Source: Mytilus californianus (taxonomy: Eukaryota). Taken from it: a stretch of 64,000 bases of DNA. The notes under the pieces are model-generated. The model was not told the origin of the DNA and did not search any database. It was given only the letters and a program-made list of their open reading frames with translations. This document shows, one piece after another, positions 31,649 through 37,681 of this stretch. The number at the start of each line of letters is the position of its first letter. Within the stretch, counting starts at the first letter, position 1. A program made the position numbers and the translations under genes. Where the stretch lies: NCBI RefSeq assembly GCF_021869535.1, contig NW_026262723.1, forward strand, positions 88,908,001 through 88,972,000, given 5' to 3'.

Positions 31649-31715
31649 TGGTTCTCCCTAAAAATAATGATACATATATAAATTATCATAATATATTTTA
31701 TTTATCTGGCCTTTA

Positions 31716-32219
31716 TCAATTTTGGAATTCATATGATAGTCCTGAATAAAATGTTTGGTTGTTTTCCTTCACAGTCTCAAATTTAATTATCAGATCGAAA
31801 ATGCGTATCCGGTGCATTTTCCTTGCCTTGTTTAGAATCACTTCTTGGTGGTAAACCCCAAAGCGATTGGATCGTTTTAACCATCCAATGGCTTTGAAGT
31901 TCTCCACCGTCCACTTCCTAAGATGCTCCTGATAGGATAAGTTATGTATTTCGGCAAATTGTTTCCGGCGTCCAATTATTTCTGCGAATTTTGTGGGTAA
32001 ACCACAATAATTGTCAATTATAATTGGATCCGACAGGTTAATAAGCTTCTGTATAGCGTGGAATTCCTTAAATAGAGGTTCCCTTCTCTTTCTATCTAGT
32101 ATTTCCCGGAAATAATTGATCTTAAATTTTACATATATGTCCCACCATAAATTATCAGGTAATAGTTTCCACAAATAGAGGGATTCTAGCTGGGCAAAGC
32201 TTTCTTCATTGTCTGCCAT
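31716..32219 (-). CDS. Accessory ORF of unknown function (167 aa) between pol and env
   Basis: Open frame with a splice-acceptor-like ttctcattttacag directly before A-ATG; no family recognised. Confidence 0.7.
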   Translation of the reverse strand: MADNEESFAQLESLYLWKLLPDNLWWDIYVKFKINYFREILDRKRREPLFKEFHAIQKLINLSDPIIIDNYCGLPTKFAEIIGRRKQFAEIHNLSYQEHLRKWTVENFKAIGWLKRSNRFGVYHQEVILNKARKMHRIRIFDLIIKFETVKENNQTFYSGLSYEFQN

Positions 32220-32323
32220 TCTGTAAAATGAGAATAAATACTAGTTTTATTACATAGTTTATAAGTTTTAGAAATTTTTAAATGATTTGCATCCTTCTTA
32301 CGACCTATAAAGCCAATTGATAC

Positions 32324-35300: not shown

Positions 35301-36430
35301 TTCAGGCTGCGATAGTCCACGCACATCCTTGATGTTTTATCCTTTTTAGAAACGATAATAATAGGCGCAGCCCAAGCCGACCTAGATTTCCTAATAATAT
35401 TAGCCTCTAATAATTCCTCAATAGCCTTATCTATTATTTTTCTCTGATTGAGAGGGGCCCTATAGGGTTTTAATCTGATAGGTGGATGATCCCCGGTATC
35501 AATAGTCATTTGCACTGTATCAGTGCACCCCAAATCTTTGTCTGAAGTTGCAAAAATATCTTCATTATCCCTTAACATTCTAAGTATATCCTTTTTAAAT
35601 TCTTGTGGTACACTTATTTCAGACTCATCTAACTTTTTGAGTTCCGAAGTTCCTTGTGATTGATTAACATTGACTAAATTTATTTCTTCTAAATGAGAAG
35701 CCTTACCTACTACACAACCTCTTCTTAACCTAATTGATTTGTTTGTGTTATTTACAATCATCAAAGGAAACTTCCTATTTTTATTAAAATTAACCACCGT
35801 ATTACTTATCATTAAGCCTGGTTCTGTACTAACATACCCTGAAGCTACAGGTGAGATTTCTAACAATTTAGTACTTCCAAAACTTGGATTGTTCTTAAGG
35901 CCTACGGGACAAACATTAATTGTTTGTGGTTTTAATACGGCATTTACGGTTAATCTTACAATTGAAGCCACATTAATATCTTCTTCTAATGGAACATAAT
36001 TTTTTTGAATTCTTAAACATCCTAAATCAAAATATAACCTAACTCCATTTTGTACTAACCAATCTTTTCCTAAAATAACATTTCTGTTCATGTCTCTAAC
36101 AACATAAAATAATTGAGTAACTTTTGTACTACCTATTTTAAATGTAAGGTTTGCACAACCTTCTACATGTAAAGACCCCCCATTTACGGACTGTAAGTTA
36201 GCCGTTTTCTTTAGTAATTTTGGTTTATCCCTCAAAGTTTCAAAAATTCTTTTGTGTATCAAAGAAACACTAGCGCCTGAATCTACGAGAGCTCTATATC
36301 TTTGATTTTGAATTTTGATTAAAGTTGAATTTGGAGCTCCTGCAACATTTATAGAATAAGTAGGTAATTTCTTTTCAATTTTACTCTTATCACCGGCTTC
36401 AACGTGACAAGAGCGCTTTAGTTTTCCTGA
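32324..36430 (-). CDS. pol: Pol (PR-RT-RNaseH-IN), expressed by a predicted -1 frameshift
   Basis: LVDSGA protease upstream of the ORF-track start; YIDD; YTDAS, TDHKPL; integrase HHCC, DDE and GPY/F-like module; long acidic tail. Confidence 0.95.
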   Translation of the reverse strand, partial: SGKLKRSCHVEAGDKSKIEKKLPTYSINVAGAPNSTLIKIQNQRYRALVDSGASVSLIHKRIFETLRDKPKLLKKTANLQSVNGGSLHVEGCANLTFKIGSTKVTQLFYVVRDMNRNVILGKDWLVQNGVRLYFDLGCLRIQKNYVPLEEDINVASIVRLTVNAVLKPQTINVCPVGLKNNPSFGSTKLLEISPVASGYVSTEPGLMISNTVVNFNKNRKFPLMIVNNTNKSIRLRRGCVVGKASHLEEINLVNVNQSQGTSELKKLDESEISVPQEFKKDILRMLRDNEDIFATSDKDLGCTDTVQMTIDTGDHPPIRLKPYRAPLNQRKIIDKAIEELLEANIIRKSRSAWAAPIIIVSKKDKTSRMCVDYRSLNAASKIYSFPLPLIDDLLASVGKAKVMTSLDLKSGYYQVKVKESDKEKTAFVCHKGLFEFNVLPFGLASGPSLFSELVTEVLQGLEHFSTAYIDDILIFSETVEEHLGHIQQVFDRLRQHKLKLKLKKCNFLQDETNYLGFIISKDGLKPDPEKVKAIQGMKAPSNVREVRGLIGCLSYYRRFVPSFSKIAEPIVALTRKNKVFDWTNTCQVAFEKLRGELVKVPLLAYPDLNKPYVLYTDASDNCVGACLTQLQASPIEGENEVERPIYFLSHKLSDTQTRWSTIEKEAFAIHYALQKLNHYLYNAEFVIKTDHKPLKYILESPMQNKKIQLWALNITGYNCTIQYIPGPQNVCADFMSRLPSDEKRNENPDPYPDISDNTYEINVINSNRFHFSDYANNDKLVEDIPEKENFQFEEFDMSIEQMKDKTLRELKEQLVSDKVPEAVQNKYIIIDDILYYISNVDNDPIIRLYIPSHIKQAVVEQYHDKNGHMGIDKTFDSIRQKYFWPNMFKELYNYVTTCVPCQSRNLQKVRAPIQETKIPPYPFCHVGVDLSGPYPTTMSGNRYIIGFIDLYSGWPEAFSVATKSTDNVAHLLIEEITSRHSGIQILTSDNGGENCSKAMEEVCKELNIKHIKTSFYHPQGNAKIERFHRTLHDVLSKLIEDHSTTWDLYLNQALAAIRFNINESTQLSPFYALYNRDPVLPLDNILQPRRKYNGEEYHKIALQQQHKSFMLVHKTMKKSKQKQAKYANKHSKDIRFEVGNPVFYKNHRRASKLSKKWTPYYRIIEQTSPVSFILKNQLDGTTTKAHAEQIRLAKLDWEIPNNNQGRILRKAAYVVPIESQSEDSSDDESIDSDTPLNQIAKRYKKERENSDEEDDIPLMELSKKLRGKKIFSEQNNVNNSEIESDDQIIKEEVENSSTNSEVSDIDDKMSSSHSSPVESEISDMEDNMSVNRVKIKNNRKPTDNGANETKLVTKEHVQNLVRALIGIM

Positions 36431-37572
36431 TATACACCCCAGTTTTCTACCATGTTAACAGTCCTAGGTTTTCTATTTGGGCAATTTGGCCTAATATGTC
36501 CCCGTTGATTACACTGATAACAAATTATCTCATTATTTCTTCCCGAATTCCCTTGATATTGTTGCGTTTCAACTGCATTTACTTGTCTATATGTTCCCCT
36601 AGAACGACAATCTCGTGCTATATGTCCTACCTTACCACAAGAATAACAATTAATTTCCCTGTTTCTACCCGAATTTCCGTGATATGTTTGCATTTCTACG
36701 GCATTAATTTGTCTCAAATTTCCCCCAGAACGACAATCACGTGATACATGACCTACTTTACCACAAGAATAACAACGTTTTGCATCACGATAATGATCAA
36801 TTTCCATTGGTTCATGAGAGTTCAAAGGTTCAGTCCGTCGTGGTCTAGTTAATGTCATTGGTCTTATTGTTTTATACCTTGGTTCGTCTACCCTTTCCGT
36901 TCTTAAAGTAAATCTTTTTCTCAAATTTTGTTCAGTCATTGCACTTTTAACTGCCAAAGAAAAAGTAGCTGGGTTTTCTCTCATTAATTTCATTTTTAAA
37001 TAAGAATGAGCCAAACCATCTATAAAAATGCCTACGAGTTCCCTTTCTATAGCTTCATTATTTCCATCTAAATCTGAATATGCCTCATTTGCCAAATTCA
37101 ATAAATTTTCTGCATAAATTTGAACAGACTCGTCCCCTTTTTGTTTTAATTGTCTCAAAAGAGTTGACGCATGTTGAGGGTCCGTAATTTCTCCAAACCT
37201 TGAAGTTAATTCTTTTTTTAATTGTTCCCAAGTGGTATCCCGATGGTCTCTTAAATACCTTTGTATGTAATCTGAACAAGCCCCTTTACATGTTTGAAAA
37301 GCTATTTCCTTAATTCGATCCCTATCATTAAAAAGTAAAGCATATTTTTCAATTGACTTAATCCAGGCTTTAAAATCTTTCGTATTACCTTCAAAAGGCG
37401 TTATTCCTTGAACTACGTTTTGAGAACAAATGGCTGATTTTAACCCTTTTAGTTCGGCGGCTACATCGCCTTGAATAGTAACTACTTCCCTTAACCCATG
37501 AAGTTCGTTCGCGACACCATTGAAAGCTAATTCTACTTTTTGTGCTGACATAGAAGTATCTTGGTTATCCAT
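36418..37572 (-). CDS. gag: Gag with three CCHC zinc knuckles
   Basis: Likely start MDNQDTSM at 37572; CYSCGKVGHVSRDC, CYSCGKVGHIARDC, CYQCNQRGHIRPNC. Confidence 0.93.
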   Translation of the reverse strand: MDNQDTSMSAQKVELAFNGVANELHGLREVVTIQGDVAAELKGLKSAICSQNVVQGITPFEGNTKDFKAWIKSIEKYALLFNDRDRIKEIAFQTCKGACSDYIQRYLRDHRDTTWEQLKKELTSRFGEITDPQHASTLLRQLKQKGDESVQIYAENLLNLANEAYSDLDGNNEAIERELVGIFIDGLAHSYLKMKLMRENPATFSLAVKSAMTEQNLRKRFTLRTERVDEPRYKTIRPMTLTRPRRTEPLNSHEPMEIDHYRDAKRCYSCGKVGHVSRDCRSGGNLRQINAVEMQTYHGNSGRNREINCYSCGKVGHIARDCRSRGTYRQVNAVETQQYQGNSGRNNEIICYQCNQRGHIRPNCPNRKPRTVNMVENWGVYQEN

Positions 37573-37681
37573 TAAAAAAGAATGAAAGCTATGGTAATTG
37601 CAACTTACGTGGTTCCTTTCTATCGTATAGTGGTTAGAAGTCCTGGTTGATCCTTGGTCTGAACGGCACCAATTTGACTTA

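Follow-up and report, generated by a model that had tools for sequence, protein, structure and literature searches.

A selected accessory gene between pol and env in a mussel errantivirus, and its predicted splice signals

Introduction

Envelope-carrying gypsy elements are usually depicted as plain gag-pol-env. Does one of them, in a mussel, carry a further gene with an RNA of its own? The question is raised by an envelope-carrying Ty3/gypsy element of ~9.4 kb on the minus strand (38145-28745) of a 64,000-nucleotide stretch of the Mytilus californianus genome (assembly GCF_021869535.1, contig NW_026262723.1, positions 88,908,001 to 88,972,000; 'the window', whose numbering is used throughout). 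Between its pol and env lies an open reading frame (ORF) for 167 amino acids (aa), here called ORFX. A first-pass annotation of the letters alone had proposed that one leader feeds two subgenomic mRNAs, for ORFX and for env, in the manner of complex retroviruses, and that ORFX starts with an F-box-like motif. Here, we ask whether ORFX is a gene, how it might be expressed and what its product may do.

ORFX is a gene under purifying selection

The ORF lies where it had been placed (Table 1). A search of the genome (G000) with ORFX gave 54 matches among 59 candidates. These include 13 dispersed, stop-free copies at 98-100% identity, a tandem array of 22 units and a number of older copies. In-frame indels set apart full-length variants of 175 aa (locus L031 and one record from M. 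coruscus) and of 188 aa. Ratios of nonsynonymous to synonymous divergence (dN/dS) were calculated pairwise against 13 copies; these comparisons all share the window branch and are not independent. The ratio was 0.03-0.34 in 11 copies; of the other two, one had a saturated dS and a ratio below 1, and one was uninformative. Bootstrap upper bounds were at most 0.71 in 12 of the 13. Against L031, 23, 10 and 54 differences fell at codon positions 1, 2 and 3, respectively, over 122 codons. The longest ORF on the opposite strand has 48 codons and cannot explain this signal. The suggested check, whether related elements keep the ORF intact with dN/dS below ~1, came out in its favour: ORFX is open in the 13 young copies and dN/dS is well below 1. 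ORFX is a real gene under purifying selection, and the element, which thus has a selected gene in addition to gag, pol and env, is in that respect like a complex retrovirus.

The pol-env slot in sister families

A search of G000 with env, from which 19 loci were fetched, uncovered sister families of the window element (family A). Identity to its pol is ~52-55% in families B, C and D and 29% in family E. Family A carries X, the family of ORFX, between pol and env. The same slot holds three ORFs in family C (163, 171 and 87 aa), one in family D (158 aa), one in family B (153 aa in L085; broken in L046) and none in family E. The ORFs of B, C and D are paralogues that belong to a single family, Y. 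A profile comparison of X with Y detected no similarity (probability 0.1%), on shallow alignments that leave room for remote kinship. Their low-confidence structural models also differ, X having a C-terminal sheet and Y being all-helical (predicted local distance difference test, pLDDT, of 65 for Y). For Y, dN/dS was 0.10-0.19 against four older copies in family D; in family C, older copies gave 0.23-0.62, and a close copy separated by few changes gave 0.47-0.84. The single broken copy available for family B gave 0.88, which lends no support for selection. The pol tree joins B with D and keeps A and C separate, their order unsettled. The pol-env slot is an accessory-gene cassette with zero to three ORFs per family in one genome.

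Two young copies lack the ORF altogether: L044 of family B, whose long terminal repeats (LTRs) match at 480/480 positions, and L062 of family A. The deletion in L044 keeps the gag, pol and env frames open, and that in L062 also takes the start of env. The gene is therefore dispensable in cis.

The 22 array units, of ~1.45 kb each, lie at G000:C24:26546986-26578418 (L014-L030, L042, L043). Each corresponds to window 32611-31154 and comprises the end of pol, ORFX and the first part of env. ORFX has one stop in 14 units, is matched at residues 1-155 only in two, and is open in six. Decayed copies of families A-D are also numerous on this contig, which may be a region resembling a PIWI-interacting RNA cluster.

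Splice signals and RNA

The splice signals named by the first-pass annotation are all present (a slash marks the exon boundary): a donor CAC/GTAAGT 36 nt before the gag ATG, an acceptor ttttacag/AATG before ORFX and a second, tttttag/GGAG, before env. On the sense strand of the element GTAAGT occurs only twice, at 37608 and 29868. A TATA-like box lies upstream of the donor at 37861, and no ATG intervenes between the two. The first ATG of each predicted spliced RNA is therefore that of ORFX or that of env. The donor context is unaltered in L100 (88% identical) and L101 (75% identical). Acceptor 1, AG/AATGGCA, is invariant in 7/7 aligned copies, with unrelated upstream sequence in L060; the env acceptor TAG/G is invariant in 10/10.

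The layout recurs in the other families. By a rule that asks for a YAG no more than 15 nt before the ATG, preceded by 8 or more pyrimidines in 12, ten of the 11 internal starts of the five families qualify (the eleventh scored 7); this threshold was chosen after the sequences had been seen and applied to families that are related. The same rule is satisfied by 55 of 735 other sense-strand ATGs (7.5%) and by shuffled sequence at a rate of 0.02-0.18 per site. All six accessory ORFs have a YAG 0-7 nt 5′ of the ATG. Donor-like sites precede gag in four of the five families, by 36 nt in A, 35 in B, 43-45 in D and 47 in C.

RNA was a weak test. Neither of the junctions whose search had been suggested, 37609 to 32220 and 37609 to 31657, was found in eight low-power runs; seven of these are contig sets that are not on record as RNA, and contigs drop rare forms. 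The single raw RNA run, 6% of which was read, has near-zero depth within the element, and its element reads are all of one orientation. RefSeq proteins of the env cluster are named 'isoform X1', with two accessions for one protein, which suggests that several env transcripts were modelled. Of the proposal that one leader feeds two mRNAs, the several-acceptor layout therefore stands, being kept across sister families, but the spliced reads were not found. Judged from these signals, genomic RNA and separate RNAs for ORFX and env probably arise from one LTR transcript by alternative choice of acceptor.

Exchange of ORFX between lineages

In seven copies (L031-L035, L040, L058), dS of ORFX ranges from 1.1 to saturated, against 0.06-0.43 for pol and env, so that its synonymous divergence is 3-20 times that of its flanks. 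Identity in 100-nt bins falls from 85-92% to 61-81% only over 32200-31700 and recovers at the env acceptor. In the more distant copies L041, L059 and L060 the contrast with pol and env is small. High synonymous divergence with such sharp edges makes it likely that ORFX has been exchanged between lineages by recombination. The simplest reading would be that the window lineage took its allele from a more distant lineage. Positive selection was considered as a cause of the faster evolution of ORFX and rejected, because the excess divergence is synonymous.

The ORFX protein

ORFX is basic (isoelectric point 9.4; 8.9-9.5 among X variants) and has neither a signal nor a transmembrane segment. Its predicted structure has a helical N-terminal part and a four-stranded sheet at residues 122-165, at low confidence (pLDDT 53). 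The Foldseek comparison suggested for ORFX found no match at E 0.001 or better in a viral library or PDB, and the Y model had none in PDB at the same threshold. A VIA structure search with ORFX reached a best Z of 6.3, with none at 8 or above. From models of such low confidence, these searches show neither a new nor a known fold for either protein, and the ESM Atlas, which recognised both poorly, gave leads only. Homologue searches with ORFX returned only Mytilus records and one unnamed ENA protein; scans of metagenome and viral contigs found no homologue, and ORFX and five related ORFs are absent as exact sequences from the protein collection. A role as a membrane fusogen of the sORF2/FAST kind was rejected, the highest 19-residue hydropathy being 0.7-1.0.

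The supposed F-box-like start, LWKLLPDNLWWDIY, is present but spans residues 17-30 rather than the very start. Its likeness to an F-box is partial: the first-helix motif is conserved, but the canonical profile is not matched. The pattern W-x-x-L-P-x-x-L-W-x-x-I-Y is kept in six X variants, down to ~42% identity, and sequences such as LLPDNLWWDIY, LLPPELWWNIY and LLPPQLWVAIY fit the F-box-type first helix L-P-x-E-x-x-x-x-I, a short motif whose fit does not rise above shuffles. An F-box profile was built from 28 of 30 fetched mussel F-box loci, two with stops being excluded. Twelve held-out members scored 48-64 bits, against -3.5 to -1 bits for the X variants, a score reached by 206, 55, 230 and 61 of 500 shuffles for four variants. 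The V-C-x-x-W half of the F-box is absent from the X variants. Canonical F-box membership is rejected because these scores fall within the range of shuffles and there is no Pfam match. A complex prediction of ORFX residues 8-64 with a stand-in Skp1 scored 0.01 and speaks neither for nor against binding. A short helix that might bind a host protein is kept as a lead. Separately, two Skp1-like loci lie ~9 kb apart on opposite strands at G000:C132:61739882 and 61748564 (L087, L088).

Comparison with known systems

The lentiviral genes vif, vpr and vpu are small, lie between pol and env, have an acceptor each and share one 5′ donor, and they turn over fast. They belong to another virus family, and no similarity of sequence or fold to ORFX was found. 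Drosophila errantiviruses (gypsy, Tirant, Kuruka) express env from a spliced subgenomic mRNA with a conserved acceptor (PMC13669377). They share the gag-pol-env plan, with env spliced there and predicted to be so here; they are described with one subgenomic RNA, whereas the mussel element has a second gene behind a predicted acceptor between pol and env, and a sister family has up to three. The Caenorhabditis elegans element Cer1, which has no recognisable env, encodes CERV, a 517-aa protein of five exons that shares gag exons and occupies the env slot (PMC10309623). Compared by description, CERV and ORFX are both lineage-restricted non-structural proteins of Ty3/gypsy elements, with a spliced RNA for CERV and a predicted one for ORFX; ORFX differs in its 167 aa, its predicted single coding exon and its coexistence with env. 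In the MDG1 group, sORF1 and sORF2 are unspliced, precede gag and are present instead of env (bioRxiv 10.1101/2025.03.14.642691), and rotifer ORF3s occupy the place of env (PMC5408684). These are likewise small accessory ORFs of gypsy-type elements, selected or captured as modules; unlike them, ORFX lacks a membrane segment and coexists with env, in the interval that separates it from pol.

The element itself is likely already catalogued as Mollusca_Bivalvia_Mcal_errantivirus_1, because LTR length, span and the position and sequence of the primer-binding site (PBS) agree. That entry (PMC13524379 supplement) lists an ENV_F element in 8 copies with an LTR of ~465 bp and a span of ~9.4 kb; the PBS lies 10 nt past the LTR with the same 12-mer, and both are multi-copy. 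The survey behind it, of F-type 'ancient errantiviruses' (Chary and Hayashi, PMC13524379), used a pipeline that tolerated a pol-env gap of 1,000 nt and did not annotate the gap, and its main text contains none of the terms 'splic', 'accessory', 'sORF', 'small ORF' or 'extra ORF'. Spliced env in errantiviruses and accessory ORFs that replace env or precede gag, as in Cer1, the MDG1 group and rotifer elements, are thus already known from these sources. What appears new is an accessory-gene cassette led by predicted acceptors, between pol and env and beside env: no earlier description of accessory ORFs or of such cassettes in mollusc errantiviruses was found in the literature searched, a scope outside which lie subscription journals, Repbase and bioRxiv supplements.

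Weighing the explanations

The reading that we favour combines a selected accessory gene, its own singly spliced RNA, recombinational exchange and possible action on host defence; as a whole, it has a somewhat better than even chance. A single splice from 37609 to 32220 would yield the RNA from which ORFX is translated, and alternative acceptor choice from one leader would yield either this RNA or that of env. The gene would pass between lineages by recombination, and its product would act in trans against a host defence factor. Such a trans-acting modulator of host defence, a tentative proposal to which we give slightly less than an even chance, is the favoured function because genes in the slot have been gained, lost, duplicated, replaced and exchanged, a pattern that we take as typical of genes in conflict. 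About equally tentative is its molecular form, in which ORFX would serve as a small, soluble adaptor: its conserved helix, W-x-x-L-P-x-x-L-W-x-x-I-Y, would bind a host protein and thereby blunt silencing or immunity.

Several results, besides the late choice of acceptor threshold, weigh against this reading. Five of the 11 internal acceptor sites are env acceptors, which were expected anyway; the family C donor, AAG/GTACAG, is weak and was read by eye, and family E has no clear donor. Neither window acceptor has a YTRAY branch motif next to its polypyrimidine tract. The eight runs examined, of 24 listed, contain no splice junction, and contigs of four runs from one study cross both acceptors unbroken, some also the donor (for example X15 at 29247-36798 and X20 at 29820-36041 and 37437-37897), so unspliced sequence is present. 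A spliced retro-copy is absent at 14/14 leader loci. As for the protein, ORFX has no F-box match in Pfam, residues 1-45 are its least constrained part (pN/pS 0.57, against 0.13-0.20 elsewhere), and positive selection was not seen, all pairwise ratios being below 1.

The main functional rival holds that ORFX is a regulator like Rev or CERV, made from spliced RNA, which binds the unspliced RNA of the element and promotes its export or sets the balance of acceptors. The protein is basic, with Arg/Lys clusters and no membrane segment, a strong donor obliges the element to export unspliced RNA, and CERV of Cer1 is a precedent (PMC10309623). In the models, the C-terminal sheet aligns weakly with Pur-alpha over 49 residues (Z 5.3, root-mean-square deviation 2.4) and with a PC4 homologue over 47 residues (Z 5.0, deviation 3.1), at levels below what is meaningful. 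We nonetheless consider this role unlikely: family E and a young copy of family B have nothing in the slot, which in B-D is otherwise filled by the all-helical, apparently unrelated Y. An export factor that is essential and tuned to a cis element would be less readily swapped or lost, although the deletion copies could be complemented in trans. It is still less probable that ORFX works as a true F-box protein, recruiting Skp1-Cullin1 so that a host factor is destroyed. The X variants conserve L-P-x-x-L-x-x-I-[YF], LP-E motifs lie near the start of Y1 and Y2, polerovirus P0 binds SKP1 through a short F-box-like motif (PMC6593998), and an Atlas cluster with 21% F-box members (score 0.79) offers a lead only. 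Against these stand the profile scores, no better than shuffles, the missing V-C-x-x-W half, and Y proteins of families B and D that lack the motif.

Other alternatives concern expression, or whether there is a gene at all. ORFX could be a real gene that relies for its expression on an internal promoter, or on re-initiation downstream of pol, the acceptor-like sequence being T-rich intergenic DNA. No junction was seen in the runs examined, the gaps are A/T-rich, and Oikopleura Tor3b and Tor4b express env from internal promoters, Tor4b from the pol-env gap (PMC4402516). Yet an AG lies directly 5′ of the ATG in 4/6 accessory ORFs under the YAG rule, shuffled upstream DNA yields such an acceptor in only 2-18% of trials per site, and the donor is conserved; we regard this route as improbable, on a par with the F-box protein. 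A last alternative, that the ORF codes for nothing and is a spacer or a neutral relic, is very improbable indeed. The ORF is dispensable in two young copies, has no homologue found outside Mytilus and gives a model with a pLDDT of 53, but purifying selection, third-position bias, in-frame indels and an opposite strand with no ORF longer than 48 codons all argue for coding. The broadest form of the favoured reading would make mussel errantiviruses invertebrate 'complex retroviruses', whose plug-in pol-env cassette of acceptor-led genes (unrelated X and Y, zero to three per lineage) is gained, duplicated, lost and swapped and antagonises host RNA silencing or immunity through a minimal F-box-like helix, convergently with lentiviral vif, vpr and vpu. 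Taken in full, that extension is rather unlikely.

The element and its surroundings

In this young element, the two LTRs are identical over 464/464 bp. TG...CA LTRs, a target-site duplication, a PBS and a polypurine tract mark it as Ty3/gypsy (Metaviridae), and Pfam domains follow the gypsy order (Ty3_capsid, RVT_1, RT_RNaseH, Integrase_H2C2, rve). Env, encoded after pol, has the layout of F-type errantiviruses: a hydrophobic, signal-like N-terminus, a furin-like KTKR at residues 124-127, a hydrophobic stretch like a fusion peptide and a transmembrane anchor from about residue 572. No Pfam family exceeded the cut-off for env, and no PDB sequence matched it. The env cluster is annotated from M. 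californianus, and those relatives that bear names are all Mytilus. Pol appears to be expressed through a -1 frameshift relative to gag, for which G GAA AAC immediately 5′ of the gag stop (window 36418-36430) is a candidate site. A 126-bp repeat in gag (window 36494-36745) yields its three CCHC knuckles.

Table 1. Features of the mussel element, in window coordinates
Feature	Position	Strand	Remarks
5′ LTR	37682..38145	-	464 bp, TG...CA, identical to 3′ LTR
PBS-like 12-mer	37660..37671	-	10 nt past LTR; reverse complement is the PBS given for Mcal_errantivirus_1
Predicted splice donor CAC/GTAAGT	37603..37609	-	last exon base 37609, GT 37608-37607; unchanged in L099-L101
gag, 384 aa	36418..37572	-	capsid and three CCHC knuckles
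pol (protease, reverse transcriptase, RNase H, integrase)	32324..36418	-	open in -1 frame relative to gag; no ATG before protease
Predicted splice acceptor 1	32220..32235	-	AG at 32222-32221; exon start 32220
ORFX, 167-aa accessory gene	31716..32219	-	between pol and env; ATG 32219
Predicted splice acceptor 2	31657..31672	-	AG at 31659-31658; exon start 31657
env, 671 aa	29630..31645	-	ATG at 31645
Polypurine tract	29214..29223	-	
3′ LTR	28745..29208	-	464 bp
Target-site duplication, 4 bp	28741..28744	unstranded	second copy 38146-38149

The element is apparently inserted in a DIRS-like element, recognised by weak Pfam scores. The DIRS-like flanks lie on the minus strand at window 24731-27076 and 38470-39042. 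One side encodes a tyrosine recombinase and a reverse transcriptase that has a methyltransferase-like tail, and the other an ORF of 190 aa. In run X2, one contig joins the flanks 28737/38146 without the element; it represents either a site that is empty or a further copy of the repeat that flanks the element. Tandem element ends occur at L094 (G000:C110:83950658-83953748), where a full 5′ end is immediately preceded by an LTR and a 3′ end. Elsewhere in the window, a Rhodopsin-family G-protein-coupled receptor (9837-11910 and 14415-15122) has its second coding exon duplicated in a 3.2-kb tandem repeat. A repeated 3.3-kb unit at 17961-22540 carries a 267/217-aa ORF and, on the opposite strand, an ORF for a His-Me finger endonuclease. 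Minisatellites of 51 bp and 20 bp lie at 53763-54275 and 60917-61871, the 20-bp arrays forming an inverted pair.

Significance

In one mussel genome, five related families differ in the number of small genes between pol and env, the genes present are preceded by splice-acceptor motifs, and alleles show signs of having been exchanged. Should the RNAs and a host target be confirmed, strategies like those of complex-retrovirus accessory genes would have arisen independently in an invertebrate lineage. X and Y would then be two new protein families and probes of bivalve anti-transposon defence. On the same condition, the unannotated pol-env gaps of the ~1,500 catalogued errantiviruses would be the place to seek more such genes.

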